Positions 28,515 to 63,244 of a stretch of 64,000 bases of DNA are shown here, one piece after another. The notes below the pieces were generated by a model. It was not told the DNA's origin and did not search any database. It was given only the letters and a program-made list of their open reading frames with translations. This stretch comes from an uncultured Gammaproteobacteria bacterium (GTDB taxonomy: Bacteria; Patescibacteriota; Microgenomatia; Levybacterales; UBA12049): assembly GCA_965230895.1 (NCBI GenBank), contig OZ246394.1, positions 712,627-776,626 of the forward strand, read 5' to 3'. A program made the position numbers and the translations under genes. Numbering within the stretch: position 1 is the first letter of the stretch; each line of letters begins with the position of its first letter.

Positions 28515-29078
28515 ATGAATTATTTAGAGTTTGCCCTCACTGTAGGGAAACTAAAGTCATTGAAGCGCACGGGATGGGTACGAAGGAATGTGCCTGATCC
28601 AGAAAGTGTAGCAGCCCACTCATTTCGTACAGCAGTCCTCGCAATGACCCTTGCTCCCAAAGTCGGTGCAGATAGTAATAAATCAATGAAGATGGCATTA
28701 ATCCATGATATTGGCGAAGCAATCATAGGTGATGTTGTCGTAGCGTCTTGGGATGGCAAGCGATTGGATATGCCAAAGCTTGTTAAAAAGAATGTACAGG
28801 AGGTTGCTGCAATCCATGAAATATTTGCACTTATAAAAGATGTAGATTGTCCCGCACTGTTTGAAGAGTTTCAAAAGAAAAAGAGTCTGGAATCAAAATT
28901 TGTAACGGAAATTGATAAGCTTGATATGGCAATCCAAGCATATGAATACGAGAAAGAATATGGAATTGATTTACAAGCATTTTTTAATAATGTCCAGGCA
29001 ATATTACGATTTAAAGCAGTCAAAGAATTGTTTGATGAAGTGGAAAAGAAGCGTAAAGCCCTCGATATTCAACGGTAA
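28515..29078 (+). CDS. HD-domain phosphohydrolase (YfbR/HDDC2-like 5'-deoxynucleotidase family)
   Basis: The H...HD motif is present: 'SVAAHSFRTAVLA' followed by 'ALIHDIGEAIIGD'. Confidence 0.65.
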   Translation: MNYLEFALTVGKLKSLKRTGWVRRNVPDPESVAAHSFRTAVLAMTLAPKVGADSNKSMKMALIHDIGEAIIGDVVVASWDGKRLDMPKLVKKNVQEVAAIHEIFALIKDVDCPALFEEFQKKKSLESKFVTEIDKLDMAIQAYEYEKEYGIDLQAFFNNVQAILRFKAVKELFDEVEKKRKALDIQR

Positions 29079-32436: not shown

Positions 32437-32448
32437 ATGATTTATTAT

Positions 32449-32478
32449 CCTACTTTTTCCTACTTTTGACTACCTTTC
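32449..32478 (-). promoter_or_regulatory. Candidate MraZ operator: three 10-bp-phased direct repeats immediately upstream of mraZ
   Basis: On the coding (minus) strand the region reads GAAAGGTAGtcAAAAGTAGGaAAAAGTAGGa. The AAAGTAG-like heptamers recur with 10 nt periodicity, resembling the Firmicute/Mollicute MraZ box (AAAGTG[T/G] repeats with 3 nt spacers). Confidence 0.35.
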
Positions 32479-32605
32479 ACTATTGTGCTCTTTCCGTGAA
32501 AAGTTGTCAATATATAAGCTGATCAATATAGTGTTTGGAATAAATTAAAAGCACAAAATGTAGCGTTTTAGAATGTAAGAAAAAGTATTATAGGGGTTGT
32601 GAAAA

Positions 32606-33106
32606 TTATTCTTCGACTTGGAGAGTATCTTCAACGTTGTAGATGTTACCGTCGTTCTTTGTTAATTTCAATGTGATGTCGACACTTGTGACGCCTGTAT
32701 CATATCGGCAAACGTTTCGTGAACAGCTTCCAAGATCAAGCTCTTCGGATTCATAACTTGATGCACCTGATTCTACATCAGCCTCTCCAGTAATTCCACG
32801 TTGTACGCGATCTTCTCCACCTTCACTCTTTTCTTGAGCGGTAGAATCTGCTTCGTAAACAAGTTCGTATTCAATTGATTCAATACCTTGTGCTTTTGCA
32901 ATCTTAAACTGTACTTTCTTTTTATCTGGAGTTAGTGACATTGAAAGACCAATCTCTTCAGGTGTAATTGTCTTAACCATTGTTTCAGAAGATTGCTCTT
33001 CAGGTTCTGCGGCATTACGATTTGCTACGAAGTAGAATGCTCCAAGAGCAAGAAGAACAACGACGACTACGCCAACTGCTATGAGGACACTTTTATTCTT
33101 CAACAT
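32606..33106 (-). CDS. Hypothetical secreted or membrane-anchored acidic protein
   Basis: An N-terminal TM/signal 'VLIAVGVVVVVLLALGAFYFV' is followed by a Glu/Asp-rich domain with two Cys pairs. Confidence 0.35.
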   Translation of the reverse strand: MLKNKSVLIAVGVVVVVLLALGAFYFVANRNAAEPEEQSSETMVKTITPEEIGLSMSLTPDKKKVQFKIAKAQGIESIEYELVYEADSTAQEKSEGGEDRVQRGITGEADVESGASSYESEELDLGSCSRNVCRYDTGVTSVDITLKLTKNDGNIYNVEDTLQVEE

Positions 33107-33212
33107 CTCCTACAGAATAACGGAAAGAATGCTCTGCTGTCAAGTAAGTACTGCTCTGACCTATTTCTGACATATTGCTGACCTTTCAAATAAATGGTAG
33201 AGTTTAATTACA

Positions 33213-34880
33213 GTGAAAGAAGGTTGCTCGCGTTCTACTGTCGCTCAAAGATCATCTGAAGGTCGTCCACTCCTACCTCTTTCTGTGGTAAAAAACACCC
33301 GAGAAGTTACGTATACTCCTGAAACAATCCAAGAAGAATGCGGTATTGTAAGTTTTTATAATCCCAACGGCATTAAGCCCGGGGACATGCAAGACATGTT
33401 CACACAATCAATGCAAGGCGTTAAACACCGCGGCCCCCAAGGGGCCGGTTTCGTATTAAGGACTACTGAGGGGCGCATCAGTCGTTTTACTGGCGCAGGC
33501 AAGCTTGAAGAATCAATTCCTCAACGTAAACTCACCGATGAAATCAATGAAGACAAGGTTACTTGGATGATGGGACATACCAGATATGGGACGACTGGTG
33601 GATATGCGAAAGAGAATATTCAACCTTGTATTGCGGAAGCACCCGATGGCTCCCAAATTTACGTTGCACATAACGGGAACTTCTCTGCCACTGAAAAAAT
33701 GAAGACAATACTTGGGAAAGAATACCCTGAAGATGTCAGCGATACCTATTTGTTCACGCAAGTGCTTGCACAAATGGAGGGCGATTCATGGGATGAGAAA
33801 ATTGCAAAAACAATGGCTGCGATTCCAGGAGCAGCAAGCGTTCTTATAGGGATTGGAGACAAACTCTATGCAGCACGCGATAAGAAAGGAATGCGCCCCT
33901 TTGTCGTGGGGAAGAAAGACAACACATGGATGACTGCATCAGAGACACTTGCTTTTGATAAGGCCGGTGCTGAAGTTCACAGAGAAATTTTACCTGGTGA
34001 AATAGTGCGATTTGATGATGATGGAGTAACCATAGTTCAAGCTGGAGATAAGGACCGACAAAGAGAATGTGCTTGGGAAGGAGTCTATTTTATGCGCGGA
34101 GAATCACTGAGTAATCCTTCGTCAGAAGACTTACCTCCCACAGAATGGGTTGAGAACAATGTATTGCGTAGACAAATAGGGGTACAGCTTGCAGAAGAAG
34201 AAAAGGCACGAGAAGAGCATCGTGCCCATTCTGAAGGATCTTCATACAAGCCTTTTAAACCAGACTTTGTAGTAGGTATTCCTCAGTCGGGAATTCCTTT
34301 TGGAGAAGGGTATGCTGAAGGGATGGATGTTCCATATCTTCGTCTTATAGAAAAAGCTTCCCAAGAGAGACAATTCCTCGATCAAGATGTTGCCGGAATT
34401 CAAGGAAAAGTGGCAGATAATTTATTAATAAAAGATACAGAATTTTGGCAAGGAAAAACTGTCGTTTTAGTAGATGATTCTATAGTAAGAGGTAGTGTGT
34501 CTAAAGGCTTAACAGAAGTATTGCAAGAACTTGGAGCAGAGGTACATTGGCGATCAGGATTACCAATGATTATGGATACCTGTCATTTGGGCGTCAGCAT
34601 ACGAGAGGAAAAAGAATTAATTGCAGCTCGAAATCATGGAGACGAATCAGCGATTGCAGAGGAAATTGGCGCAGCAAGTGTTCATTACATAACTGATGAA
34701 GGATTTAATAAAGGCCGTCGTGGAGAGCTTTTCGTAGCACCACAATCAGGCGGAGATGTCTACAAAGCAAACGGTTTATGTGGTGGATGTTTTACTTCAG
34801 GAGAGAGTGATTACGCATATAATCGAGAAGCCTCAGGAGCCACCGATATTTTCCAAAGCTTTAGGCCACAAGCTTCGTAG
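33213..34880 (+). CDS. purF: Amidophosphoribosyltransferase-like protein (PurF family: Ntn glutamine amidotransferase plus PRTase domain). The ORF uses a GTG start.
   Basis: The nucleophile context 'EECGIVSFY' is followed by 'HRGPQGAGFV', 'GHTRYGTTGG' and 'VAHNGN'. The PRTase motif is 'VVLVDDSIVRGS'. Cys residues sit at positions equivalent to the B. subtilis PurF 4Fe-4S ligands ('ECAWEGVYF', 'CGGCFTSGE'). Confidence 0.7.
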   Translation: MKEGCSRSTVAQRSSEGRPLLPLSVVKNTREVTYTPETIQEECGIVSFYNPNGIKPGDMQDMFTQSMQGVKHRGPQGAGFVLRTTEGRISRFTGAGKLEESIPQRKLTDEINEDKVTWMMGHTRYGTTGGYAKENIQPCIAEAPDGSQIYVAHNGNFSATEKMKTILGKEYPEDVSDTYLFTQVLAQMEGDSWDEKIAKTMAAIPGAASVLIGIGDKLYAARDKKGMRPFVVGKKDNTWMTASETLAFDKAGAEVHREILPGEIVRFDDDGVTIVQAGDKDRQRECAWEGVYFMRGESLSNPSSEDLPPTEWVENNVLRRQIGVQLAEEEKAREEHRAHSEGSSYKPFKPDFVVGIPQSGIPFGEGYAEGMDVPYLRLIEKASQERQFLDQDVAGIQGKVADNLLIKDTEFWQGKTVVLVDDSIVRGSVSKGLTEVLQELGAEVHWRSGLPMIMDTCHLGVSIREEKELIAARNHGDESAIAEEIGAASVHYITDEGFNKGRRGELFVAPQSGGDVYKANGLCGGCFTSGESDYAYNREASGATDIFQSFRPQAS

Positions 34881-36276
34881 CGAAATATTCTTTTAATTCA
34901 GCAATCTTTACTCGCTCTTGTTTCATTGAGTCTCTGTCACGAACAGTAACTGCATCATCTTCAAGAGTTTCAAAGTCAACGGTCACGCACCATGGTGTCC
35001 CGATCTCATCCTGTGCGAGATATCTTTTACCAATATTTCCTCGTGCATCCCAAATAGTCATAAAGTCATTACTTAAGTCTTCAAACAAACCTTGTGCTTT
35101 CTTCACCAATTCTTCTTTGTTTGCAAGAAGTGGGAATACTGCAACTTTGTAAGGAGCGATCTTTGGATCAATCTTAAGGACAGTTCTATTGTCTTCCTCT
35201 GTATACGCATCAGCCAAAACCATAAGCATCAAACGATTTACACCAACAGCTGGTTCAATAACATGTGGAATGATCTTTTTTCCTGTTTGCGGATCAACAA
35301 CTGACAAATCTTTCTTAGCATAATTAATGTGTTGTGTTAAATCGTAATCTGTTCGATATGCAAGTCCCCATAATTCCTTCATTCCAAAAGGGAAATTATA
35401 TTCAAGATCTTCAGTTCGTTTACTGTAAAATGAACGTTCTTCATCACTATGGAGTCTCCATCGAAGATTTTCTTCTTTAATACCTAATTGCTTAGTAACG
35501 AAATCATTCATGCGCTTTTTCCATTCTTCGTACAATGGCTCCCACTCTGTTTCTTCTGGATCGAAGAAGTACTCAATTTCCGCTTGATCGAATTCAATTG
35601 TACGGAAGATAGAATTACCAGGAGTAATTTCGTTACGAAATGATTTACCTTGTTGAGCAATTCCAAAAGGCAATTTCACACGATTTGACGCCAAAACATT
35701 TTTAAAGTTTGTGAAGATTAATTGTGCGGTTTCTCCTCTGAGATATCCACTTCCTTCTGATCCCTCTACGATCCCTAATTGCACTGGGAAAAGTTGATTG
35801 AATTTACGTACTGCAGTCCAATCATGAGCACCGCATTTCGGACAAGGAATCTTTTCCATTTTAATAATGTTCTCGAGCTCTTTGGTACTTAATCCTTCAA
35901 CTTTTCTTTCATCACCTTTTGCTTCAAAGTAGTCTTCAATAATATGATCTGCACGATATCGACTTTTGCAGTTTTTACAATCTACCATCGCATCAGCAAA
36001 ACCAGCCACATGACCTGATGCTTCCCAAATCTTATGATGAGAAATAATACTTCCATCAAGACCTACCATATCAGGACGCTTTTGAACAAAATATCTCCAC
36101 CAGAGATTTTTTATATTGCGGAGTAATTCGGTACCGACTGGACCATAATCATATGTGTTTGCAAGCCCGCCATAGATTTCAGATCCAGGATAAATAAATC
36201 CTCGACGCTTTGCGAGGGAAACGATTTTTTCCATTTTTGCGGGATCAACTGTAGTTTTTGTTTCTTTATCAGCCAT
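34861..36276 (-). CDS. glyQS: Glycyl-tRNA synthetase, alpha2 (archaeal/eukaryote-like) type
   Basis: 'KRRGFIYPGSEIYGGLANTYDYGPVG' is the GlyRS start. A class II motif 2 'FRNEITPGNSIFR' and the ~470 aa length fit the single-chain glyQS form. Confidence 0.8.
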   Translation of the reverse strand: MADKETKTTVDPAKMEKIVSLAKRRGFIYPGSEIYGGLANTYDYGPVGTELLRNIKNLWWRYFVQKRPDMVGLDGSIISHHKIWEASGHVAGFADAMVDCKNCKSRYRADHIIEDYFEAKGDERKVEGLSTKELENIIKMEKIPCPKCGAHDWTAVRKFNQLFPVQLGIVEGSEGSGYLRGETAQLIFTNFKNVLASNRVKLPFGIAQQGKSFRNEITPGNSIFRTIEFDQAEIEYFFDPEETEWEPLYEEWKKRMNDFVTKQLGIKEENLRWRLHSDEERSFYSKRTEDLEYNFPFGMKELWGLAYRTDYDLTQHINYAKKDLSVVDPQTGKKIIPHVIEPAVGVNRLMLMVLADAYTEEDNRTVLKIDPKIAPYKVAVFPLLANKEELVKKAQGLFEDLSNDFMTIWDARGNIGKRYLAQDEIGTPWCVTVDFETLEDDAVTVRDRDSMKQERVKIAELKEYFATKLVA

Positions 36277-49778: not shown

Positions 49779-50927
49779 TTATTTTGCTGCAACGTCGACA
49801 AGTACTTTGAGTGTCTCCTTTGCTGTTTTTTCCCAATTAAACTTCGTTGCCTGTTTTTTTCCTTTTTCACTCAGCTCTTTTCGCAGATTTTTATCATTTA
49901 CTACTTTCACGAGCTTATCTGAGATATCAGAGACATCTTCAGGATCTATATAAACTGCAGCATCTCCTCCTGCTTCCGGCATACTACTTACATTGCTTGT
50001 AATAACTGGCGTGCCCTGCTTCATGGCTTCAACTACAGGCAAACCAAAGCCTTCATAAAGGCTTGGTAAGACATAACAAAGAGTATGTTTATACAGCATA
50101 TGCAATTCGTCATCATTGATACCTTCAAGAAATGCAACTTTATTTTCAACTCCAAACTTCCTTGGTGCATTAAGTATATCTTCATACAACCAGCCTTTCT
50201 TCCCAACAACAACGAGCTGTAAATCTCTGTATGCTTCATCTAATTTTTTGCTTTCCAATGCTTGTGCAAATGCTTCTATAAGGCGGGAAATATTTTTTCG
50301 AGGCTGCAAAGTACCCACAAATAAAACGTAGTTATTACTGAGGTTATATTTAGCTTTTAACTCGTTCATAGCATAAACATGAGGCTGAAGTGAAACAGAT
50401 TGTTTTATCCCAGGATAAATTGTTTTGACCTTTCCCTCAGGTACTTTGTACGTTTTAATTATATCATTTCTACTTGAGTTACTTATAGTCAATACGACCT
50501 TTGCCTTCTCCACAGAATACTTCGTCCAATTACGAAGTTGATACATATCAGCCTTATTAAATAACTCTGGAAAGCGCAAATATGCTAGATCCATTATAGA
50601 AACTACTGTCGGAATAGGCGAAAAACGTGGAGCATAATGGGTTGGGCTAAAGAAAACATCTGGTTTTGACTTACTCAAAAATAAATTAAGGGGCAAACCA
50701 AATTGTGTCCAAAACTTTCCAGGACCGACAATTTTATATTGCCAATTTACGTTTTCCTTTGGAAGTGTCTTTAAAGGTGGTTGTTTAAGATAAATAACAA
50801 ATTTTACCTCAAGTGATTTATTCGATTCAGCAAATTTTGCAAAATAATATAATAACCAATAAGCGTACTCACTTATTCCTACCCTTTTTGTAACATTGGC
50901 TTCATTGCCATCGATTCCAATAATCAT
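49779..50927 (-). CDS. Glycosyltransferase family 4 (GT-B)
   Basis: 'MIIGIDGNEAN' is the N-terminus. The C-terminal 'PSLYEGFGLPVVEAMKQGTPVITS' motif is GT4-like. Confidence 0.7.
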   Translation of the reverse strand: MIIGIDGNEANVTKRVGISEYAYWLLYYFAKFAESNKSLEVKFVIYLKQPPLKTLPKENVNWQYKIVGPGKFWTQFGLPLNLFLSKSKPDVFFSPTHYAPRFSPIPTVVSIMDLAYLRFPELFNKADMYQLRNWTKYSVEKAKVVLTISNSSRNDIIKTYKVPEGKVKTIYPGIKQSVSLQPHVYAMNELKAKYNLSNNYVLFVGTLQPRKNISRLIEAFAQALESKKLDEAYRDLQLVVVGKKGWLYEDILNAPRKFGVENKVAFLEGINDDELHMLYKHTLCYVLPSLYEGFGLPVVEAMKQGTPVITSNVSSMPEAGGDAAVYIDPEDVSDISDKLVKVVNDKNLRKELSEKGKKQATKFNWEKTAKETLKVLVDVAAK

Positions 50928-50929
50928 AA

Positions 50930-51472
50930 TTAATTCCCCGGATATGTAACGTGCAAACGATTTTCTTCAATTCCTAATATATTCATTGCATCTTTCTTGG
51001 TTGCTTCAGAAATACAAAGGATCGCATCGGATTCTTTCTTCACCCAAGCAAGTTTTCTTTTTTGTGTTGCTATAATTTTTTTATCAGTTTCTTCAGGAAA
51101 CTTATAAATAATTAAATCATATAAAATAGTAATTTTTTTCGCTTTTTTAACTGGAGGTTCTGTCCAGTCAGAAGTAATAAAAACATCTACATCTCCTATT
51201 AGATTTTCGATTGGCATGATATGCAATTTATTCCAGAGCATGTCTAATAAGGTTGGTGGAAATTTAAAAGATTTAACGTGTACATTTGAAGATTGAGGCA
51301 AATTCAAATTTGGGACTTTTCCACGTAAACTCGAAAAGAACAAAACATATTCATTTTTATTATCTTGAAGGAGCAATTGCGTAAGTGTCTGTTTAAGATA
51401 ATTTGCCACACCAGTACGACTGTAGGCCATTTGTGAGATATCAATTCCAATCTTCATAGGAGTTCCTAGCAA
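50930..51472 (-). pseudogene. Truncated GT4 glycosyltransferase comprising the N-terminal Rossmann domain only (180 aa). Probable gene remnant or pseudogene.
   Basis: 'MKIGIDISQMAYSRTGVANY...LCISEATKKD...HVTYPGN*' is the donor-less N-terminal half of a GT4. It stops right after the interdomain 'YPG' motif, and the next full-length GT4 starts 3 nt downstream. Confidence 0.4.
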
Positions 51473-51510
51473 ATTTTATTGTAGCATAAAGGCTTTTGTT
51501 ATAGCTCAGA

Positions 51511-51723
51511 TTATGATTTTTTCAGATGTAAAAGTATAATCCCTAAAAGGATAAATCCAGCAGCATACATAACTAACCTCTCCGCTGTAAAAAATATCTG
51601 TAATTGAAAAAGCGGTATTGATAAACAAAAAGAGATTACTCCTACAACAATAGCCCACTTTGGATTTCTTCTCCAAATCAGAGCAATGATAACAATTATA
51701 AATAGAATATCTTGTGGTTTCAT
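51511..51723 (-). CDS. Small two-TM membrane protein
   Basis: A 70 aa protein with two hydrophobic helices. Confidence 0.3.
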   Translation of the reverse strand: MKPQDILFIIVIIALIWRRNPKWAIVVGVISFCLSIPLFQLQIFFTAERLVMYAAGFILLGIILLHLKKS

Positions 51724-52553
51724 TTTTTCTTAATAAAAATAATAATTATTATTATCAAAATTGAAAAGATAATACTCGTTATTACTCCTCTATCAACCCA
51801 TTCTTGTGGAGTATATTGAACAGTGAATGTATAGGTTCCATCTTGTGGCAAGATAAAACTGTTTAATCGGTTGTATTGTTTGCTTGAAATACTATCTGAG
51901 CCGACTTTCGCTGCCCACTTCGCATCATATCCTTCAGAAAATATAAGCTGGTCTCCTTTGCGCGCATTCTTTACGTATACCTCATAATGTACAGGAGACA
52001 CATAAGTATATGTTACTTCAAGATTTTTACTTGTTGTCCAGAAGTGATCTTTAGGATTATTGAGTTCATAAACAACTATCTTCCCATACGTTTTTACCCT
52101 CTTTAACCATTTGATCCTGTCAATAGTTGCTACTACTGAGAGATATTGTTTCTCATCATATTGCCTGTCAGTGTTGAAGATCTGCTTTTCAGAATCAAAT
52201 GGAACAATAACATATTTAACACTTGCTTCACTGAGGAATTTTTCGGTATCCTTTCTTTCTAAGTATTTAAGAACTGCATCTTGATTAGGAGCATTAAATA
52301 ATTCTTGTGCAGAGATAGAACGATGCTTCTCAGACATATAGACGTAATGTGGCGATGCTGGAATCCATAAAACCCGGTAAAATGCATTTTGTCTTGAGAG
52401 AAAATCTTTAAGCTCGACGTATTCGTTTGGCAATTGAGAATTTCTAAGTGTTCCAGTAAACTCTCCGGTAAAAGCAGGTTTTAATAGGAATACAAAATAC
52501 AGAAAGACTCCCAACAAAAACAGCCATGGCAAAAGTTTATTTAGTATTTTCAT
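51720..52553 (-). CDS. C-terminal (periplasmic domain plus C-terminal TM) part of a split member of the large membrane-protein family (see 56013..58184)
   Basis: 'KIVVYELNNP...EVTYTYVSPVHYEVYVKNARKGDQLIFSEGYDAKWAAKVG...SKQYNRLNSFILPQDG' aligns with 'ISDKNAEITYEKVSPARYTVDVKH...QIIFDNPYSEKWEMYLG' of 56013..58184 and with the C-terminus of 58181..60328. Confidence 0.5.
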   Translation of the reverse strand: MKILNKLLPWLFLLGVFLYFVFLLKPAFTGEFTGTLRNSQLPNEYVELKDFLSRQNAFYRVLWIPASPHYVYMSEKHRSISAQELFNAPNQDAVLKYLERKDTEKFLSEASVKYVIVPFDSEKQIFNTDRQYDEKQYLSVVATIDRIKWLKRVKTYGKIVVYELNNPKDHFWTTSKNLEVTYTYVSPVHYEVYVKNARKGDQLIFSEGYDAKWAAKVGSDSISSKQYNRLNSFILPQDGTYTFTVQYTPQEWVDRGVITSIIFSILIIIIIIFIKKK

Positions 52554-53760
52554 ATTTCTTCTTATTTAAAACTATATAAATTTTTTCAATAGCGTATGGA
52601 ATAAGAACTGAATAAGCAAGTGCTATTAAGATATACCATTTCGAAGGATCCCGGAAAGCATTAAATCCTGGTAGATTATTAAATAACCATAGGTAGACAT
52701 CTCCAAATGGATCGTTAGCACCCTTTGCGAGGAATGCTCCTAAAATTCCTACTAGTGCAAAATAAAGAATGTACTTTTTTCGCGCTTTATCTTTGCTGTC
52801 GATAAAAAGCATTGAAGAATATGCTAAGAGTGGTAGAACCAAAAATTCCGGTTTCATAAATCCTACTTTCCCAAAAATATTATCCGGCCAATTAGGATGC
52901 AATAAAGAAATTGTATTCTCGAATTTTGCAAAACTCAAAAATTTAACGCTTTCATTCCCTATTACATAACCACCATCTAATTGAGAGACAGATCCACCGC
53001 CTGCAAAGAATGCTGGCATTGTCCAAAATGCCAAAATGATAGCAGTAGACAAAAATGGAATTATACATGTAAAAAGGATAAGCAAAAGAAACTTTTTGAA
53101 AACAAACCCAGAGATAATTTCGTGCACAAAGGGCAAATAAATGATAACAGCTACGAGCGCAACATATCCCACACGAATATCCAAGCTCATTTGCAAGCTT
53201 AAACATACTCCAGCAATTAAAGAAGGGCTCAATATTTCTTTTATTCTTATCTTTTTTGATGATAATAAACTTATTTGATTAATAGTCGATAGAAAGAAAT
53301 ATACAACTATTGGCGTGATTGCATATGCTAGAGCAAAATGAACCTGACCACCTGATACAATCATCAAAATATAGGAATTAATTGTATAAATGAAACTTGC
53401 TAATAAAGCGAAAGATTTTGATACAAGTGTTTTCTGTGCAAAAAACCAAGCAGAAACAAAAGAAAGGATAAGAAATGGAAAATAGAAAACAACTTTATCT
53501 ACGAGATCCCAACTTAAGCCAAATATATTTCCAATCCCCATCGCAACGCCATTACTCGCATATCCCCAAAGTAATGGAATGAACGTACCGCCAAGCCCTG
53601 AATCTCGCATAGTACTCCAAGCGTATGGATAGACTGAATATAAACTATACGATTCTTTAAAATAAAACAGAGAATCATAACCTGCGAGAAAACCTGGAAC
53701 GAACCAATTGTGGGTTACAAACAAAGTAATAAATAAAACAGGTAAAGCAATAAAAATCAT
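52537..53760 (-). CDS. N-terminal polytopic (about 11 TM) part of the split large membrane protein
   Basis: A 407 aa hydrophobic protein. Its stop overlaps the start of 51720..52553 by 17 nt in another frame. Confidence 0.45.
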   Translation of the reverse strand: MIFIALPVLFITLFVTHNWFVPGFLAGYDSLFYFKESYSLYSVYPYAWSTMRDSGLGGTFIPLLWGYASNGVAMGIGNIFGLSWDLVDKVVFYFPFLILSFVSAWFFAQKTLVSKSFALLASFIYTINSYILMIVSGGQVHFALAYAITPIVVYFFLSTINQISLLSSKKIRIKEILSPSLIAGVCLSLQMSLDIRVGYVALVAVIIYLPFVHEIISGFVFKKFLLLILFTCIIPFLSTAIILAFWTMPAFFAGGGSVSQLDGGYVIGNESVKFLSFAKFENTISLLHPNWPDNIFGKVGFMKPEFLVLPLLAYSSMLFIDSKDKARKKYILYFALVGILGAFLAKGANDPFGDVYLWLFNNLPGFNAFRDPSKWYILIALAYSVLIPYAIEKIYIVLNKKKYENTK

Positions 53761-53762
53761 AC

Positions 53763-54878
53763 TTAGATTTTTGTGTATTTATGCTCAAATAGTGCTTGTA
53801 CTGCACCAAATGCAGTAAATAAAAGTATCCAAAATGCTATCCTTTCTACTAGGTTTTGATAATGACCAAATGACACAAAAATAGAAATTAAAAGTAACCC
53901 CACAACTAATACAAAACTTGCTTTGCTCCTATATTTATTTACAATACAATTAAATAACCAAAGCATTAATACTGTCAAGGTTACAAGGATATTTAAATTC
54001 TCAATAAAAAGGATATCAAAAAGTAGACATAATCCAATAAGTACATCAAAAATGGTAAGCTCTTCAATTGCTCTTCCTAAAACTTTTAACCCTGTAACCT
54101 GAGCTGTGGATTTACTAATTTTTTTTGTCTGCCGATTGTAATATTTACTTATAATTTCTCCTAAAAATGTTCTCCAAAGATAATAAAAGATAAAAGGTAA
54201 AAGAAAAATAAATACAATTAGATAAAATTCTATATGTGAGAATGCATATAGAACCTTTTGTATTATGAAATGAGTTAGCAGCGGCGTATTACTTACCAAC
54301 TCACCTTTATTAAATTGGTACAGAGACACAATAATAGGTTGTTTGTCAGTTAAAGTTAAAGCGTTTCCTTTTTGTCCGTTAAGAGAGATTATTTCAAATT
54401 GGTAATTTTTCCCCTGAGAATTAGTTATAGGTGGAAAGCCAAATGGAAAATGAACAAGCTCTAAGAATTGGCCTCCAGAATATTTTTGTTCATAAATCCA
54501 TTTCTGATCATTCTTTTCTTTTAAGCGGAATACAATCGTATCATCTTGCTTTTTTAATATTCCAATTTCTTCATGTTCTTTATTATAATTATGGAGTCGC
54601 ACAGCAACTGCACCTAAATTATTTTCTTCTGCTTTAAATTCTCCTTTGATCGTTTGTTTTGCATAGAGTTCTCCTTGACTTGGAGATATTGTATATGAAC
54701 TCTTATGTTCATAGGGAAGAATCGTATAACTTGCATTATGCGTAAGTGAAGAAAAGACAGAAAGTCCAAACCCTATCAGAAGCAGTATCCCAGGAATGAT
54801 AATATTTGCGATGATTCTATTTGCAAATAAGGCTTTACTTGCCCCTCCTATGTGCTGAGATATTTTTTTTACCTTCAT
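53763..54878 (-). CDS. Hypothetical membrane protein with an N-terminal anchor, a ~180 aa exported domain and a C-terminal multi-TM bundle
   Basis: A 371 aa protein. Codons 3-6 contain an A8 homopolymer (54863-54870 on the plus strand). It is embedded in the glycan island. Confidence 0.4.
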   Translation of the reverse strand: MKVKKISQHIGGASKALFANRIIANIIIPGILLLIGFGLSVFSSLTHNASYTILPYEHKSSYTISPSQGELYAKQTIKGEFKAEENNLGAVAVRLHNYNKEHEEIGILKKQDDTIVFRLKEKNDQKWIYEQKYSGGQFLELVHFPFGFPPITNSQGKNYQFEIISLNGQKGNALTLTDKQPIIVSLYQFNKGELVSNTPLLTHFIIQKVLYAFSHIEFYLIVFIFLLPFIFYYLWRTFLGEIISKYYNRQTKKISKSTAQVTGLKVLGRAIEELTIFDVLIGLCLLFDILFIENLNILVTLTVLMLWLFNCIVNKYRSKASFVLVVGLLLISIFVSFGHYQNLVERIAFWILLFTAFGAVQALFEHKYTKI

Positions 54879-56032
54879 AGTTCTCCCAATGCTTTGGTAA
54901 GGACATTATCCCATTCAAATTCTTGAGCATATTTAATTGCATTTTCTCTCATACTTTTATATTTCTTTTTATCTTTCATAATTAGAATTGTTGCATCAGC
55001 AAATGCTTGTTTATCATATGCTGATACCAAACCACAATTTCTCTTCGTTAACTCTTCAGATATCTGTGTCAAGGAAGTTGTAATGACTGGTAATCCTGTA
55101 GCAATATATGTTTTCACTTTGGAGGGATCAGCATAATAGGACCATCTTGCAAGTTCTTCACTATACATTGCAGCTGCGACACCACAGGATGCCAATATTT
55201 CTTCCACATCTTCATGCTTTTCCATATATCCCAAAAAATCAACGTACTTATCTATTTTTAATTTTTTTGATTGTTTTTTGAGTTCACCTTCGTATGAACC
55301 CATCCCAATAATTTTAAATGTGAAGTCAGGAATTTGTTTAACAATGAGTGGAATAGCATCTAAAACAAGTTGTATACCTTGATGAGGAGCCAACCCTCCT
55401 GCATAAACAAGTGTATGAGGATTTACTTCCTTAAACTCCTTTCGCTTAATTCGATTAAACCAGATACCTATAGGAACGATTAGTTGCCTATTAAAAATTT
55501 TTCTGTTCATCCCAAGCAGTTGTTCTCTTCCTTCTGCAACACGGTCGGTTAATATCCAGGTTGCATCTGCATAACGAACAGCAAATTTTTCAAGGCTATG
55601 ATAGATCGAATTAAGTAATTGATTATCAAAGCGTTTCGGTACAAAGTCGATCGTATAATATATAACTTTTTTCAACTTCCCTAATGTTCTTAAGATAAGT
55701 CCTGTGAATGTATTAAGATTATCGAGTGAAATTATGAGATCCCAAGTTCCACCCGCTTTAAAGACCCAATAGATAGAGAGTAAAACGTCTTTTATATATT
55801 GAATAATACTTGGTAATTGTATGTTTTTATATTGTATCTGTTTGACCAGTGTTCCTTTTTCATAAAGCTCAAAAACCGGTCCTGGACGATCTTTAACAAA
55901 AAAAAGTGGATGCCCCATATACAAAAGTCTTTTTACTTTCTTTTTCAGGAAATACTCTTTTAGATCCTGCGCAGGAACAGTCGTTAAAACATGCGCTAAA
56001 ATTATTATTTCTTTATTTTTTATATCTTGCAT
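54875..56032 (-). CDS. Glycosyltransferase, GT-B (GT4-like)
   Basis: A C-terminal domain 'YAGGLAPHQGIQLVLDA...KVKTYIATGLPVITTS' has GT4-like topology. Confidence 0.55.
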   Translation of the reverse strand: MQDIKNKEIIILAHVLTTVPAQDLKEYFLKKKVKRLLYMGHPLFFVKDRPGPVFELYEKGTLVKQIQYKNIQLPSIIQYIKDVLLSIYWVFKAGGTWDLIISLDNLNTFTGLILRTLGKLKKVIYYTIDFVPKRFDNQLLNSIYHSLEKFAVRYADATWILTDRVAEGREQLLGMNRKIFNRQLIVPIGIWFNRIKRKEFKEVNPHTLVYAGGLAPHQGIQLVLDAIPLIVKQIPDFTFKIIGMGSYEGELKKQSKKLKIDKYVDFLGYMEKHEDVEEILASCGVAAAMYSEELARWSYYADPSKVKTYIATGLPVITTSLTQISEELTKRNCGLVSAYDKQAFADATILIMKDKKKYKSMRENAIKYAQEFEWDNVLTKALGEL

Positions 56033-58184
56033 AGAATAAATGTATTATAAAGTATAAGGTTATTACAGCAAATGTAAATAAACTTATTATATCTCCAAAT
56101 GCGAAAACGGCCTGAGGAGCAAAGAATATTGTCGCAGTAAAGCTTACACTTTTATCAGAGTTTATAGTTATTTGGTTTGGATATTCTTTTTTTAGTTTAT
56201 CTACATCAATTACCCAAGCATTGAGATATTCATTATATCGCATATGAGTTTTTAAGATATCCTTATTCAAGAAAAATTGTGTCTCATGTAGATTTCTTGT
56301 ATCCCCTAAATACATTTCCCACTTCTCAGAATATGGATTATCAAAAATGATTTGAGATTTTTGAGAAACATGCTTTACATCAACAGTATATCTTGCTGGT
56401 GATACCTTTTCATAAGTGATCTCTGCATTTTTATCAGAAATACTTATTAAGGGCTTTTGAACTTTATTGTTTTCTACGACTTTTTTGATTTGATAGACGT
56501 TTATATCTCGAGCTTTATCAGTTGTAGATATATAGCCTGAATCTGGCGTTCCTTGGAGATGTCCAACAAATACCAAGCGATTATCTTTAGCTAATTGAGC
56601 ATTTATTTGGGCTGAATTGTTTTGCAGATTGTTATAGATCATGATTGTATCAATATTATGATCTGTTAAATAATCAATTGTACTTGATTTGGTTATATCA
56701 CTTATCTTTGCATAATGCGCTTGCGCATAAGGATCAAAAGGGCTTGCTCCACATGCAAACGCTTTATTATGAACAATCTGGGCTTTTAATTGATATGTTT
56801 CAGGACATCCAGTGACAACATCATTTTGAGTCATTGGATACGTAGCAATGGCATGAATATCCTCATTATCTTTGATTGATTGATAAAGTTGTACTTCCTT
56901 AGAAAAATTACTCAAGCGCCACCAAGATTGATCAACGTTTAGCGAGTTGCCAACCAAGACAAGCGTTAAGATTGAGAACAGTATAACTTTGTAGTTTTGG
57001 TGTAACTTCCTGTAGTACATGCTTTGCATAAAACCATGAATTGCAAGCCCAAACAATATCCCTAAGAATAAATAGGCCAACAAAACCATACGAGCCACCC
57101 CTCTAAAAATTCCGAAATACTTAAAATAAATTTCATTGATCCAATATGTATAAGGTGAATATGCTGATAAGATAAGTGCACCGAGGAAACAACATAATAT
57201 AGCAACTTGAATACTTGTTCTTCGCAAGAATACAAGCCCACAAAAAACAATTAAAGGTACTATTACATATAAGATATTCCCTATATACGGAATATATGTT
57301 TTTAGCATGCTGTATTCAGGTGGAGAGAAATAATAGAGAATACTGAGTAATTCGTTCTTTGCGATAGAATTTCTACCTGTAGCAACTGCGGCCTCACTAT
57401 TGAATAGGTAGAAGTTTGTCACAAAGAAGTTAAAATTGCATGCAATTAAAACGAGTAATAAAACTGGATAATAGATACATGCGCTTTTTAAACTGGAAAT
57501 TAATGACTCTCTTTTATAAGCAAAAAAGATAAGTGGAGAAAGTAGCCCTGAGAAAAATGCATAATAAGCATCTGTATTAAACAGCAATGCAAAAGTCGCT
57601 GAAGAGAGTAGCAAGCTAAACACTGTCTTTCTATCTAAGAAATATACTAGTGATAAGAAATAAAACGGGATGAGCTCAATATGATTGACTGATAGTTGAG
57701 CTCTTGCCATATGCACATGATAAAAAGAGAAACTAAAAATAATGCCCGCCAAAAAACTTGCTGCTTTATTTTTTGTGAGATAATAACAAAATAAATAAGC
57801 CCCAATTGCTGATAAGGGATATGTAATGAGAGAAGAGATGTTTGTTAAGAGGATTAAGTTATTCCAATTAAAACCGATTATATATTGCATAATAAATGCC
57901 TGAGAGACATAGACCAAATTCCTAAATGGCATAAAAGTTATGTCAAATCCGAAGGGATAAGAGAAAAACTGATTAATGTAGTAAAGATATCCCTCAGATT
58001 GGATATGAATCAAATACCATTGATACCAAAGTCCTCCATCTGCGTCAACGTCCGGCATTCCATAGTAAGTATTTATATGAGGTAGCTTGTTATAAAAGAT
58101 GATAGCAGTTAATGCAGAGTATACAAGAAAGAAAAAGATGATTGTAAAAAGTTGATTATTGAAAAGTCGTTTTATGTGCCTCAT
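56013..58184 (-). CDS. Large (723 aa) polytopic membrane protein with an N-terminal ~12 TM domain, a ~280 aa extracytoplasmic domain and a C-terminal TM anchor. Paralog family, GT-C/YfhO-like architecture.
   Basis: The first loop carries 'GMPDVDADGGLWYQWYL', an acidic D-x-D-x-D motif. It is about 50% identical by eye to 58181..60328 over the TM domain ('NHIELIPFYFLSLVYFLDRK' versus 'NHIEFIPLYFLSLFYFLNRK'). Confidence 0.55.
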   Translation of the reverse strand: MRHIKRLFNNQLFTIIFFFLVYSALTAIIFYNKLPHINTYYGMPDVDADGGLWYQWYLIHIQSEGYLYYINQFFSYPFGFDITFMPFRNLVYVSQAFIMQYIIGFNWNNLILLTNISSLITYPLSAIGAYLFCYYLTKNKAASFLAGIIFSFSFYHVHMARAQLSVNHIELIPFYFLSLVYFLDRKTVFSLLLSSATFALLFNTDAYYAFFSGLLSPLIFFAYKRESLISSLKSACIYYPVLLLVLIACNFNFFVTNFYLFNSEAAVATGRNSIAKNELLSILYYFSPPEYSMLKTYIPYIGNILYVIVPLIVFCGLVFLRRTSIQVAILCCFLGALILSAYSPYTYWINEIYFKYFGIFRGVARMVLLAYLFLGILFGLAIHGFMQSMYYRKLHQNYKVILFSILTLVLVGNSLNVDQSWWRLSNFSKEVQLYQSIKDNEDIHAIATYPMTQNDVVTGCPETYQLKAQIVHNKAFACGASPFDPYAQAHYAKISDITKSSTIDYLTDHNIDTIMIYNNLQNNSAQINAQLAKDNRLVFVGHLQGTPDSGYISTTDKARDINVYQIKKVVENNKVQKPLISISDKNAEITYEKVSPARYTVDVKHVSQKSQIIFDNPYSEKWEMYLGDTRNLHETQFFLNKDILKTHMRYNEYLNAWVIDVDKLKKEYPNQITINSDKSVSFTATIFFAPQAVFAFGDIISLFTFAVITLYFIIHLFYARYKK

Positions 58185-60328
58185 AGAGTATTTTTATTCT
58201 TTAATCTCCAAAAATACATTATAAAGTAAATAGCAAGACATATCAAAACAATATTTCTAATTAACGAGCTAATTTGTATATAGATCGATGGCGTAAATAG
58301 AACCGTAGCTTTTAAGGAGCTATTTGCATCAATATTTTTAATTTTCCAACCATTCGCATAATCATTGATTGTTATATGTTCAGCTTCTAAAGGAGCAATA
58401 CTCGGAATTGCTAGAGTATTAAATGTCATTTGGCTTCCATTGTATATTTGCCACTTATCAGAGAATGGCTGATCAAAGACTATAACTGTTTCTGGGTTGA
58501 TATTTGGAACAAAAATTTCATATTGATATTGAGAAATCTTTTTTGTATAGACGTTACCGTTTTCTATTGTAAAAATATTTTTAGGCGGACGGCTTACTAC
58601 TTCTTTTATCTGATATACAGAAATGTCTCTCGATTTGTTATTGGAAGTAACATAATCACTATCTATTGGTTGAGTGTACCTTCCTACAAACTTTAATCGT
58701 TCATTATTAAGAAGCGTCTTATTAATTTCTAGACTATTAGGCAGTAAATTATTATAAATAATGATTGTGTCTACATTATACTTTACAAGCAGATCTATTG
58801 TGTCTTGACTTGATATATCTTTAATCTTTTTTTGATATTCAATTGATTCTTTGGAGAACGGACTTGCTCCTGTTACGATTTTCTTATTGTGAACTATTTG
58901 TCCAAGTAATTGATAGGTACGCGGATTTCCGTAATCAACAAAATCTAACTCAACAGGATATGGTGCAATAACTTTAATTGAGGAATTTTCTTTTATTGGT
59001 TCATAAAGTTTTGCTATCTTGGAAAAATCAGAATACATCTTCCAACTTGCATCATGATTTAACCCAATCGCTACTACAAAAAATGCTAATAACAAACTTA
59101 TCAATATCTTCTTCTTGCCTGCAATCTGAGTTATTAATACCCCTATCATTAATCCTTGGAATAGATAGACCACATGGTACATTCTTGCAACACTTCTAAA
59201 CATTCCAAAGTAATGAAAATACAACTGGTTCAGCCAATAGAATAATGGCGTATATGCTGATAATATAACAGCTATCAAAGCACAGAAGAATAAAGTTTTA
59301 TATACCCTATTTTTAAATTGGAAGAATAAACCAATAATTAGGATTATTGGAATCAGTGCACCAAAGTAAGAAAACGATTTATTAAATAAGTAAATGATGA
59401 TGCTTGTTTCAGGAAGACTAAAATAAAAGCTTAATGGTAATAACTCATTTCTATAATTAGTGACCCGACCCGATTGGACTAAGTATTGATGGTCAAAAAG
59501 TAATATATTGGAAATTATGAAATTTAAGTTAAGTAAAACGAGCAAGACAAGAAGCGCTCCATAATAGACTCCAATAGTTCTTATCTTTGATAAAATACTC
59601 TCCTTTTGATAAAAAAGAACAATAACTATAGATATGAGACCACAGAAAAATGCGTAATAAGCATCTGCATTAAAGGTAATACTAAATACAAATGCAGAAA
59701 GAACTAAAGAGACTATGCTTTTCCTATTAAGGAAGTAAAACAGACTTAAAAAGTATAACGGTATAAACTCAATGTGGTTAATGGACATTTGCCCTCTCCC
59801 TGCCAAAACGAAGCTAAAAGAAAAAGCATAAATAAGCCCGCAAACGAAACTGCCCATATAACTTCTTGTGAGGTAAAAACATAAACATGCAGCACTTATT
59901 GCAGCTAATGGGTAGACCAGTAACGAAGAAATATTAGTTATTAAAATAAGATTTTGCCATGAGAAACCAAACATTTTTAGCAGGGCAATGTGTACTGAAT
60001 AAATCAATGTTTCAAAGGGTTTAAATGTAATATCAAATCCAAATGGAAAACCAATGTAATCAGTAATTTCATAAAGCTCCTTTTTCTGTTCAAGAAAAAC
60101 AAGGAACCATTGATACCAAAGTCCTCCATCAGTATCAATATCTGGCATTGCATAACGAGTATCTAGGAAGGGCAAACGATGGTGGAATATTAGGAGAGTA
60201 AGAATAAGATAGATAAGAAATCCTATTATCGATACACTAACAAATTGCTGGACTTTATTTTGTCCATCTATAACGTTAGTAATCTTTTTCAAAAAACTAC
60301 TTTTCTGTTGATATCGATTTTGATTCAT
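58181..60328 (-). CDS. Large (715 aa) polytopic membrane protein, tandem paralog of 56013..58184
   Basis: It carries 'AMPDIDTDGGLWYQWFL' and has the same domain order. The C-terminal exported domain is homologous ('ISVYQIKEVV...YEIFVPN...FDQPFSDKWQIYNG'). Confidence 0.55.
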   Translation of the reverse strand: MNQNRYQQKSSFLKKITNVIDGQNKVQQFVSVSIIGFLIYLILTLLIFHHRLPFLDTRYAMPDIDTDGGLWYQWFLVFLEQKKELYEITDYIGFPFGFDITFKPFETLIYSVHIALLKMFGFSWQNLILITNISSLLVYPLAAISAACLCFYLTRSYMGSFVCGLIYAFSFSFVLAGRGQMSINHIEFIPLYFLSLFYFLNRKSIVSLVLSAFVFSITFNADAYYAFFCGLISIVIVLFYQKESILSKIRTIGVYYGALLVLLVLLNLNFIISNILLFDHQYLVQSGRVTNYRNELLPLSFYFSLPETSIIIYLFNKSFSYFGALIPIILIIGLFFQFKNRVYKTLFFCALIAVILSAYTPLFYWLNQLYFHYFGMFRSVARMYHVVYLFQGLMIGVLITQIAGKKKILISLLLAFFVVAIGLNHDASWKMYSDFSKIAKLYEPIKENSSIKVIAPYPVELDFVDYGNPRTYQLLGQIVHNKKIVTGASPFSKESIEYQKKIKDISSQDTIDLLVKYNVDTIIIYNNLLPNSLEINKTLLNNERLKFVGRYTQPIDSDYVTSNNKSRDISVYQIKEVVSRPPKNIFTIENGNVYTKKISQYQYEIFVPNINPETVIVFDQPFSDKWQIYNGSQMTFNTLAIPSIAPLEAEHITINDYANGWKIKNIDANSSLKATVLFTPSIYIQISSLIRNIVLICLAIYFIMYFWRLKNKNTL

Positions 60329-61370: not shown

Positions 61371-61378
61371 AGTGAGAA

Positions 61379-62521: not shown

Positions 62522-62532
62522 ATGTTGCTTGA

Positions 62533-63243: not shown

Positions 63244-63244
63244 A

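Follow-up and report, generated by a model that had tools for sequence, protein, structure and literature searches.

A stand-alone gene in a Levybacteria genome of ~1.6 Mb (1.61 Mb) probably encodes a functional glutamine PRPP amidotransferase (PurF) of the [4Fe-4S] type, from a divergent, Microgenomates-specific lineage that is likely to have been inherited vertically in Levybacteria. PurF is the first enzyme of purine synthesis. The open reading frame is real and lies in a 64-kb stretch of DNA (64,000 nucleotides; hereafter the window) from an ultra-small (CPR) bacterium, in which the protein product of the adjacent glycyl-tRNA synthetase gene has its best named homologue in Candidatus Levyibacteriota (89% identity). 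PurF function is suggested by the two-domain architecture of the protein, its match to the purF NCBIfam model, PurF matches in PDB and Foldseek searches, the retention of 48 out of 48 invariant alignment columns and the presence of sister members in operons, while vertical inheritance is argued from synteny across six lineages, GC3 and codon usage. From the conserved residues, we infer that the enzyme would convert glutamine and PRPP to 5-phosphoribosylamine, glutamate and PPi. The stand-alone position of purF is a lineage-specific gene arrangement, which in Levybacteria is accompanied by an unusually long presumed propeptide, a highly conserved putative promoter/operator and an unusually high rate of divergence. 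The coordinates of the gene, its features and its neighbours are given in Table 1.

Table 1. Positions in the window of the PurF-like gene, its features and its flanking genes.
Feature	Position	Strand	Remarks
Divergent 166-aa membrane-anchored hypothetical gene	32606..33106	-	First gene upstream of mraZ-rsmH-ftsL-ftsI
Conserved upstream element	33156..33212	+	Alignments A4 and A5, six lineages
PurF-like CDS	33213..34880	+	555 aa, GTG start; ORF list
N-terminal extension, 42 codons ahead of nucleophile	33213..33338	+	Presumed propeptide
Cys43 codon TGC, N-terminal nucleophile of glutaminase domain	33339..33341	+	Counterpart of mature Cys1 of B. subtilis; invariant in alignment A1
Glutaminase (Ntn) domain, residues ~43-290	33339..34082	+	R73-G74, R124-Y125, N154-G155 and D177 invariant in A1
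Cys286 codon, predicted Fe-S ligand 1	34068..34070	+	B. subtilis C236; invariant
Long helix, residues 315-344, with subclade-specific charged insertion (EEKAREEHRAH...)	34155..34244	+	A1 columns 340-360; helix in AF2 model, high pLDDT
PRPP-binding loop VVLVDDSIVRG, residues 417-427	34461..34493	+	D421, D422, S423 and R426 invariant in A1
Cys457 codon, predicted Fe-S ligand 2	34581..34583	+	B. subtilis C382; invariant; in TCHLGVS (canonical PCFYGID)
C523-G-G-C526, predicted Fe-S ligands 3 and 4	34779..34790	+	B. subtilis C437/C440; invariant
Glycyl-tRNA synthetase (glyS/glyQS type)	34861..36276	-	Convergent; Pfam tRNA-synt_2b/HGTP_anticodon

Family assignment, fold and phylogeny

The N-terminal part of the protein is a class II (Ntn) glutaminase domain and the C-terminal part a type I phosphoribosyltransferase (PRTase) domain (Pfam GATase_6/7 and Pribosyltran). 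Its best NCBIfam match is TIGR01134 (purF), at 194.9 bits against a curated equivalog cut-off of 350 bits. Canonical PurFs score 520-531 bits against this model, members of the same clade that are encoded in pur operons score 242-267 bits, and the Levybacteria subclade scores 161-195 bits, the lowest of the clade. Since the operonic members also fail the cut-off, the sub-threshold score is a property of the clade and not a sign of another function. The whole Microgenomates PurF clade, operonic members included, scores well under the curated threshold, and surveys of CPR pathways that rely on it may underestimate how often the first step of the purine pathway is present.

All PDB sequence matches were PurF (1gph/1ao0, E ~1e-47). 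The top 17 PDB matches found by Foldseek for the AF2 model of the protein (pLDDT 77.4, pTM 0.76) were likewise all PurF, the best being 1ao0_A (E 2.6e-33; TM 0.75, normalised to the target; 502 aligned columns). The closest match in both sequence and fold is the PurF of Bacillus subtilis (PDB 1GPH, 1AO0), with which the window protein shares the two-domain fold, the glutamine-site residues, DDSIVRG, the flexible-loop Arg-x-Phe and cysteines at all four ligand positions; its presumed propeptide also ends in Glu-Glu directly ahead of the nucleophile Cys, as in B. subtilis. The two proteins are ~27-29% identical, and the propeptide has 11 residues in B. subtilis compared with a presumed ~42 in the window protein. 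In place of the B. subtilis KNRYVGRTFIQP loop, the window protein has K-ASQERQFLDQ; it also has RGSV for RGTT, TCHLGVS for PCFYGID and IPQS for VPDS, and it carries inserted residues at three places: behind YF.R, within the 315-344 helix and ahead of CxxC. Escherichia coli PurF (PDB 1ECB/1ECF) belongs to the same reaction family and has the same fold (Foldseek E ~1e-30), but is only ~28% identical (tblastn). It is of the cluster-free type, with no Fe-S cluster and no propeptide.

In the protein phylogeny proposed by the original prediction, the window protein fell within a monophyletic clade of Microgenomates PurFs (NJ bootstrap 92), in which the Levybacteria proteins formed a subclade (NJ bootstrap 100); its nearest relatives are all from Microgenomates. 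When the alignment of the Levybacteria subclade was used to scan metagenomes, it retrieved only members of the wider clade, at ≤38% identity, and no new subclade context. A role in anti-phage defence was also considered and set aside, as neither the PurF-like protein nor its divergent neighbour had a PADLOC-DB match at E ≤ 0.01.

Catalytic and Fe-S residues

All 48 columns that are invariant over canonical, operonic and subclade PurFs are retained in the window protein. Among these columns are the nucleophile and the four Cys ligands, as well as the glutamine site, the PRPP loop and, from the flexible loop, R386/F388. The nucleophile motif CGIV (Cys43, within EECGIV), VVLVDDSIVRG at residues 417-427 and the C-terminal CxxC (CGGC, C523/C526), by which the original prediction had recognised a PurF homologue with Fe-S cysteines, are all intact, and C286 and C457 are also present. 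The four Cys ligand positions of the [4Fe-4S]-type PurF subclass, to which the B. subtilis, plant and vertebrate enzymes belong, are kept, and cluster binding is predicted. The glutamine-site and oxyanion residues R124/Y125 (RY.T.G), N154/G155 (HNGN) and D177 (SDT) are invariant in 21 sequences; together with R73/G74, they map to B. subtilis R72/Y73, N102/G103, D127 and R26/G27, respectively. Residues D421/D422/S423/R426 of the PRPP loop correspond to B. subtilis D345/D346/S347/R350, and the loop is followed by S-V-S in place of the canonical T-T-S.

In canonical enzymes, the PRTase flexible loop folds over bound PRPP and creates the channel for ammonia. K381, R386 and F388 of this loop (canonical KNRYVGRTFI) are kept, while the remainder is unrelated in sequence, and the loop is 3-4 residues shorter in the Levybacteria subclade than in operonic clade members. 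The acidic residue of VPDS (V-P-D/E-S), a motif ahead of the PRTase core and next to the PRPP site, is absent: the position is Gln358 in the window protein and Gln or Asn in nine out of nine subclade members (IPQS/VPNS/VENS). The wider clade and the aligned Fe-S-type canonical PurFs have Asp here. In E. coli PurF we take the acidic residue at this position to be Glu.

By homology with PurF, a ~555-aa precursor would be translated from the GTG at 33213, probably on a leaderless or very short-leader mRNA from a conserved extended -10 promoter. Insertion of the Fe-S cluster (C286, C457, C523, C526) would be followed by removal of the ~42-residue propeptide, exposing Cys43. Glutamine could then be hydrolysed by Cys43 using R124/Y125, N154/G155 and D177, and the ammonia would pass to the PRTase site (K381...R386-x-F388 loop and D421-D422-S423 PRPP loop), where it would displace pyrophosphate from PRPP to give 5-phosphoribosylamine.

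N-terminal extension and upstream element

As the original prediction had estimated, 42 residues precede the catalytic Cys when counted from the GTG at 33213. The GTG-AAA-GAA start is invariant in six lineages, the motif MKE..R..L.ITPVN..RE is common to the N-terminal extensions of the Levybacteria subclade, and a Gln-Glu-Glu/Asp-Cys junction is conserved at the end of the extension. Residues 1-42 have pLDDT <50 in the AF2 model, and the segment is weakly constrained (dN 0.26, dS 0.46). We presume that the ~42-residue extension is a propeptide that is cleaved to expose Cys43. A later in-frame GTG at 33285 would indeed leave the 18 residues that had been proposed as an alternative, but this codon is unconserved, whereas that at 33213 is conserved.

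The region immediately upstream of the gene is also conserved, including in two lineages with a different gene upstream. It contains three CTGAC direct repeats with an 11-bp period (at 33156, 33167 and 33178) and an invariant 15-mer, TGACATATTGCTGAC (33168-33182), which is unique in the window; each Levybacteria locus has a single copy, 45-46 nt upstream of the GTG, and other loci have none. From conservation alone, we read a putative promoter consisting of a -35 TTGCTG (33175-33180), a 17-nt spacer and an extended -10, TGGTAGAGT (33195-33203); a consensus sigma-70 scan called no + strand promoter before purF. The 9 nt between the putative -10 and the GTG would imply a leaderless or near-leaderless mRNA. 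The CTGAC-repeat element suggests dedicated transcriptional control of purF. No Rfam family reached its gathering score anywhere in the window, and we found no riboswitch or leader RNA upstream of the gene. Control by MraZ was considered and dropped, as the repeats upstream of mraZ are of the AAGTAGG type with a 10-nt period, unlike the CTGAC repeats.

Gene context and purine synthesis

The flanking genes named in the original prediction, glyQS and a divergent hypothetical, were both found. PurF is encoded by the sole + strand gene within a run of - strand genes, and its 3′ end overlaps that of glyS by 20 nt. In the loci of the Levybacteria subclade, purF is stand-alone and is invariably flanked by the mraZ cluster and glyS, and the order mraZ / purF / glyS-recO-DUF4012 is kept in six lineages, down to 42% PurF protein identity. 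The divergent 166-aa gene is syntenic in relatives, has a promoter called by the consensus sigma-70 scan (TTGACA-18-TATTCT at 33143..33114) and matches neither Pfam nor PADLOC; we regard it as context only, with no evident link to PurF.

Clade members that are 38-43% identical to the window protein sit directly upstream of purN-purD, followed by purL, purQ, purH, purB, purE or purC in MAGs of Roizmanbacteria, Gottesmanbacteria and others. The operonic PurFs of Roizmanbacteria and Gottesmanbacteria (loci L015, L023 and L025) share with the window protein TCHLGVS, RGN/SV, the Arg-Leu/Gln-Phe loop, the insertion before CGGC and sub-cut-off TIGR01134 scores, although their genes head a pur operon and the window gene does not. 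The window protein differs from them in its longer conserved N-terminal extension, shorter flexible loop, loss of the VPDS Asp and extra helix insertion. With sister members inside pur operons, the divergence of PurF signals no new function, and the premise that this type of organism lacks de novo purine synthesis was overstated. Complete de novo IMP synthesis has been described in 32% of CPR genomes (PMC11608272), and another survey gives 7% for nucleotide pathways (bioRxiv 10.64898/2026.06.21.733656).

One alternative is that Levybacteria lost the remaining purine pathway and repurposed PurF as an orphan enzyme for a different reaction that depends on both glutamine and PRPP, or for a moonlighting or regulatory function. 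Repurposing would explain the stand-alone locus, its own operator, the extra segments of the protein and its fast divergence. With 14 E. coli Pur/Prs/Gua proteins as tblastn queries, only the PurF-like gene was matched in the window, where the original prediction had likewise seen no other pur gene, and no pur or prs gene was found within 6-10 kb of purF in the six Levybacteria lineages examined. A PurD profile (10 Microgenomates PurDs) run against a 5.8-billion-protein set returned none from the 1,610,123-bp contig of the window or the 1,318,932-bp contig of a relative (CAZDOJ010000001.1) among its best 120 matches, all of which scored ≥612 bits, making this weak evidence on purD in Levybacteria. 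Repurposing would also fit the extreme divergence of PurF relative to 12 neighbours, the subclade changes by the PRPP site (the VPDS variants and the shortened loop), the helix insertion and presumed ~42-aa propeptide, and the TIGR01134 scores of 161-195 bits.

The lack of pur/prs neighbours and of a same-contig PurD among those 120 matches also counts against our reading of the protein as PurF, as do its outlying divergence, the lost VPDS acid, the shorter loop, the change of RGTT to RGSV and the low TIGR01134 scores. A further point against it is a report that de novo nucleotide synthesis is missing from 93% of Patescibacteria genomes (bioRxiv 10.64898/2026.06.21.733656).

Nevertheless, all universally invariant PurF residues that serve to hydrolyse glutamine, bind PRPP and ligate the Fe-S cluster are kept, and most of the odd features (the loop sequence, RGN/SV, TCHLGVS and the pre-CxxC insertion) are common to operonic pathway PurFs. 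Clustered (L144) and unclustered (L107, L141) purF genes alternate among close clade relatives, E. coli purF likewise lies apart from most of the other pur genes of its chromosome, and no candidate partner gene is conserved beside the window gene. We therefore consider repurposing unlikely. That Levybacteria kept PurF without the pathway for a non-purine role, such as a different amination that uses both PRPP and glutamine, or a part in regulation or metabolism linked to a symbiotic lifestyle, seems to us quite improbable. Were the pathway absent, PurF would be one of the rare first committed enzymes that a reduced symbiont genome retains in the absence of the pathway itself, and biochemical work on it would be worthwhile.

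Divergence and selection

PurF is a clear divergence outlier among its neighbours while under purifying selection. Its identity between genomes is 83/57/42%, compared with 86-97/78-90/75-88% for 12 syntenic neighbours. In this the window protein differs from operonic Microgenomates PurF, which is more conserved than PurD (56.8% vs 48.7%). The dN/dS of purF is 0.06 between the window and an 82% identical relative, and 0.115 between P0004 and P0007, for which dS is unsaturated.

Such rapid divergence could also mark a decaying relic of a lost pur operon that is drifting towards a pseudogene under relaxed selection. PurF diverges faster than all of its neighbours, its dN/dS of 0.115 is slightly above that of most of them (0.02-0.09), and pathway loss is described in the literature as frequent in the CPR lifestyle. 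We find this reading very unlikely, however, as no frameshift or stop interrupts the ORF, which is full-length in at least nine lineages, dN/dS is far below 1, and the catalytic and cluster residues are all invariant. The putative promoter/operator and the start codon are, moreover, better conserved than the PurF protein.

Base composition and origin

The gene was expected to be richer in G+C than its neighbours, and it does rank first among the 56 window genes (0.439 vs a gene mean of 0.371; z = 2.3). The excess is confined to codon positions 1 (0.579) and 2 (0.426); GC3 is 0.311 vs a mean of 0.287 (z = 0.8, rank 12), and synonymous codon usage is typical of the window (codon-usage distance rank 39/56). 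Recent horizontal acquisition of purF from a G+C-richer donor, which the original prediction had raised and to which the high G+C and the lone + strand position might point, is highly implausible given the typical GC3 and codon usage, the nearly equal G+C of ftsZ (0.432) and ftsA (0.422), the identical locus even in relatives whose PurF is as little as 42% identical and the exclusively Microgenomates affiliation of the nearest PurFs. GC3, codon usage, synteny, phylogeny and dN/dS led us to reject both recent transfer and the pseudogene reading. Instead, the high G+C of purF reflects a conserved protein rich in Gly, Ala, Arg and Pro. The string that the original prediction had quoted as an example of high G+C, cgcggcccccaaggggccgg (33429-33448), codes for a conserved motif, RGPQGAG. 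Amino-acid composition can be the whole source of high G+C in an AT-rich genome.

Genomic context

The PurF-like gene is the sole plus-strand gene within a long minus-strand run. Upstream and divergent lies a 166-aa gene without a Pfam domain, then mraZ-rsmH-ftsL-ftsI; downstream, the convergent glyS overlaps its 3' end by 20 nt, with recO and a DUF4012 gene beyond it, in agreement with the flanks first named for it (glyQS and a divergent hypothetical). By Pfam, the flanks carry cell-division, murein and glycosyltransferase genes. The CGIV nucleophile, VVLVDDSIVRG and C-terminal CxxC of the original prediction were each found, and its statement that no other pur genes are visible held when a tblastn search using 14 E. 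coli Pur/Prs/Gua queries recovered no purine gene besides this one in the 64 kb window. Near the locus, just one further gene of nucleotide metabolism was seen, a YfbR-like HD-domain gene 4 kb away that is syntenic in relatives.

Features of the PurF-like locus and of other parts of the window
Feature	Position	Strand	Remarks
YfbR-like HD-domain protein	28515-29078		5'-deoxynucleotidase family (HD_3, E 1e-35)
mraZ upstream region	32441-32510	-	TTGACA-17-CACAAT promoter-like site, then three direct repeats (AAGGTAGTCA / AAAGTAGGAA / AAAGTAGGAT), 10-nt period, immediately before mraZ ATG at 32436
Conserved upstream block	33156-33212	+	
CTGAC direct repeats (three)	33156, 33167, 33178		11-bp period
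Invariant 15-mer	33168-33182		TGACATATTGCTGAC
Extended -10-like TGGTAGAGT, 17 nt after a TTGCTG hexamer	33195-33203		ends 9 nt before GTG
PurF-like ORF	33213-34880	+	GTG start, 555 aa (ORF list)
Cys43 codon TGC	33339-33341	+	context EECGIV
Hairpin in coding region	33431-33447		perfect 7-bp G+C stem (CGGCCCCCAAGGGGCCG)
VVLVDDSIVRG	residues 417-427		PRPP loop
CGGC	C523/C526		C-terminal
AT-rich stretch	50000-64000		G+C 0.31-0.35 vs 0.36-0.42 elsewhere

In all six Levybacteria lineages compared (the window and the homologue loci L004/L013, L011, L008, L102 and L104), the gene lies between the mraZ cluster and glyS-recO-DUF4012, with no pur genes beside it within the 6-10 kb fetched per side. In L102 (4859-5911) and L104 (3188-4246), an additional 350-aa Pfam-less gene separates the 164-aa hypothetical from the PurF-like gene; this insertion is seen in one Levybacteria branch, leaves the putative PurF promoter block intact 3' of the insertion, and is fast-evolving (dN/dS 0.58, with a dS of only 0.19 vs 0.75-1.3 for neighbours).

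Protein family and pathway

Pfam assigns class II glutaminase and phosphoribosyltransferase domains to the protein, and its significant PDB sequence matches were to PurF only (top, B. subtilis 1GPH/1AO0, E about 1e-47). With an AlphaFold2 model derived from the alignment of the clade (pLDDT 77.4, pTM 0.76; residues 1-42 and 529-555 disordered), all 17 top Foldseek matches in the PDB were PurF, led by 1ao0_A (E 2.6e-33, TM 0.75 normalised to target). The best NCBIfam model was TIGR01134 (purF), at 194.9 bits vs a curated cut-off of 350. Across all 21 aligned sequences (window protein, canonical PurFs and clade members), 48 columns are invariant, including the Cys nucleophile, R73/G74, R124/Y125, N154/G155, D177, R386/F388 of the flexible loop, D421/D422/S423/R426 of the PRPP loop, and four putative Fe-S ligand cysteines, in line with the ligands first proposed. 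The B. subtilis sequence used in this alignment matches the PDB alignment over residues 19-424, and its Cys numbering is the published 236/382/437/440. The protein is a divergent addition to an established enzyme family.

The homologue search returned 8 clusters at 56-100% identity (about 555 aa) and 16 at 38-43% (323-391 bits), followed by an abrupt fall to ordinary PurFs (about 33%, 219 bits or less). The homologues above this drop form a Microgenomates-specific clade (neighbour-joining bootstrap 92%), found in GTDB species genomes of Candidatus Roizmanbacteria, Gottesmanbacteria, Shapirobacteria and Microgenomates MAGs, in which the window gene belongs to a subclade of stand-alone Levybacteria PurFs (100%). 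The GlyRS encoded next door shares 89% identity with a protein of Candidatus Levyibacteriota, a phylum of the Microgenomates group. Many SPIRE/binchicken MAG records in this GTDB set, and the records of L013, L014, L016, L018-L022, L027-L030 and L032, bear the placeholder or mislabelled title 'uncultured Gammaproteobacteria bacterium'; gene content and protein phylogeny clearly place the latter in Microgenomates/CPR, and such titles are unfit for taxonomy.

In the wider clade, purF is the first gene of pur operons, as in L015 (Roizmanbacteria; purF-purN-purD-purL-purQ-purH), L023 (Gottesmanbacteria; purF-purN-purH-purD...purL-purQ-purB) and L025 (purF-purN-purD...purL-purB-purE-purC), with comparable arrangements at about ten more loci. 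Like the window protein, and unlike canonical PurFs, these operonic proteins have TCHLGVS for PCFYGID, RGN/SV for RGTT, a rewritten flexible loop and an insertion ahead of CGGC, and they too fall under the TIGR01134 cut-off (242-267 bits, vs 520-531 for canonical PurFs). Since the odd features and low scores are common to operonic relatives, the divergence is a property of the lineage and is compatible with a normal pathway role. On balance, the gene probably encodes a working PurF of the Fe-S type that is inherited vertically and has a long propeptide particular to its lineage and regulation of its own.

An orphan enzyme repurposed for another role is unlikely: close relatives elsewhere in the clade alternate between clustered (L144) and stand-alone (L107 and L141) arrangements, and E. 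coli purF is also unlinked to most pur genes, so that chromosomal isolation is no evidence of an orphan. The accompanying premise, that de novo purine synthesis is usually missing from this type of organism, cannot be relied on for Microgenomates whichever published survey is taken, and the surveys disagree, one finding a complete de novo route to IMP in 32% of CPR genomes (PMC11608272) and another de novo nucleotide pathways in 7%, with phylogenetically scattered genes (bioRxiv 10.64898/2026.06.21.733656).

Rate of evolution and base composition

The gene is of modest interest for its rate anomaly, long putative propeptide and conserved putative operator. Its dN/dS against an 82% relative was about 0.06, with dS saturated; a closer pair of homologues (P0004/P0007) gave 0.115 (dS 0.53), and five conserved neighbours 0.02-0.09. 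The gene is under purifying selection, and it is quite improbable that it represents a slowly decaying relic. Set against 12 syntenic neighbour proteins, the PurF-like protein is a striking divergence outlier, at 83% identity between the window and L004 (neighbours 86-97%), 57% with L011 (78-90%) and 42% with L008 (75-88%). Over 36 pairs, operonic Microgenomates conserve PurF better than PurD (56.8% vs 48.7%). Measured from the clade ancestor, the tips lie at a distance of 0.69 in the subclade and 0.50 among operonic members. Forty-eight of the 64 columns invariant in the wider clade and canonical PurFs are still so in the subclade; the 16 changes are mostly conservative, except at the VPDS motif, whose Asp is replaced by Gln or Asn in nine of nine subclade members. 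Recent pairs are only mildly fast and three deep subclade branches are very long, which suggests episodic acceleration; its cause may be relaxed constraint (e.g. lost allosteric or oligomer constraints) or adaptive change.

The ORF is G+C-richer than its neighbours, as originally predicted, at 0.439 vs a gene mean of 0.371 (z = 2.3), the highest of 56 window genes, with ftsZ and ftsA nearly equal (0.432 and 0.422). The surplus sits at codon positions 1 and 2 (0.579 and 0.426); GC3 is 0.311 vs a mean of 0.287 (z = 0.8, rank 12/56), and synonymous codon usage, by scaled chi-square distance from other genes, ranks 39/56, under the median. The string quoted as an example of G+C richness (33429-33448) codes for RGPQGAG, a conserved Gly/Ala/Arg/Pro motif. 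The raised G+C is a matter of amino-acid composition, not foreign DNA. Recent horizontal acquisition is accordingly rejected as extremely improbable, given the ordinary GC3 and codon usage, the excess confined to codon positions 1 and 2, the placement within the Microgenomates clade, and a mraZ-glyS position constant down to 42% PurF identity, which marks the gene as an old resident.

The hairpin within the coding region, flagged by a scan as terminator-like, codes for part of HRGPQGAG, and a subclade-specific Gln-to-Pro change helps to form the palindrome; it is probably coincidental.

Start codon and upstream region

In the upstream-region alignment, GTG-AAA-GAA at 33213 is invariant in six of six lineages, and the 42 residues first counted ahead of the catalytic Cys stand. 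The later in-frame GTG (33285) would indeed leave 18 residues, but this codon is GCG or CCT in the other lineages. The 42-codon extension follows a loose subclade motif (MKE...R..L.ITPVN..RE...QE(E/D)C), evolves fast (dN 0.26, dS 0.46) and is predicted to be disordered by AlphaFold2, in keeping with a propeptide under loose constraint. Its length far exceeds the 11 residues of the propeptide in B. subtilis and vertebrate PurF.

The upstream block is better conserved than the protein itself across the six lineages, and is present in L102 and L104 despite a different upstream gene. Its 15-mer occurs once in the window and once per Levybacteria locus, always 45-46 nt before the GTG, and is absent from the other loci. 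A consensus promoter scan did not call the block, and the upstream region matched no Rfam family. Judging by its conservation, we infer that the block could act as a dedicated promoter and operator for a leaderless or near-leaderless, GTG-initiated mRNA; the CTGAC repeats suggest a candidate repeat-binding regulator. The layout upstream of mraZ is similar to that of MraZ operators with three repeats in E. coli and Mollicutes, but the repeat sequence differs.

Other features of the window

The last 14 kb of the window are clearly AT-richer, and encode glycosyltransferases and several large Pfam-less proteins (715, 723, 407 and 371 aa). Shortly ahead of it, at 44.6-49.1 kb, are genes for a Wzy_C-domain protein and a PMT_2 protein. 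The stretch has the appearance of a variable locus for cell-surface glycans.
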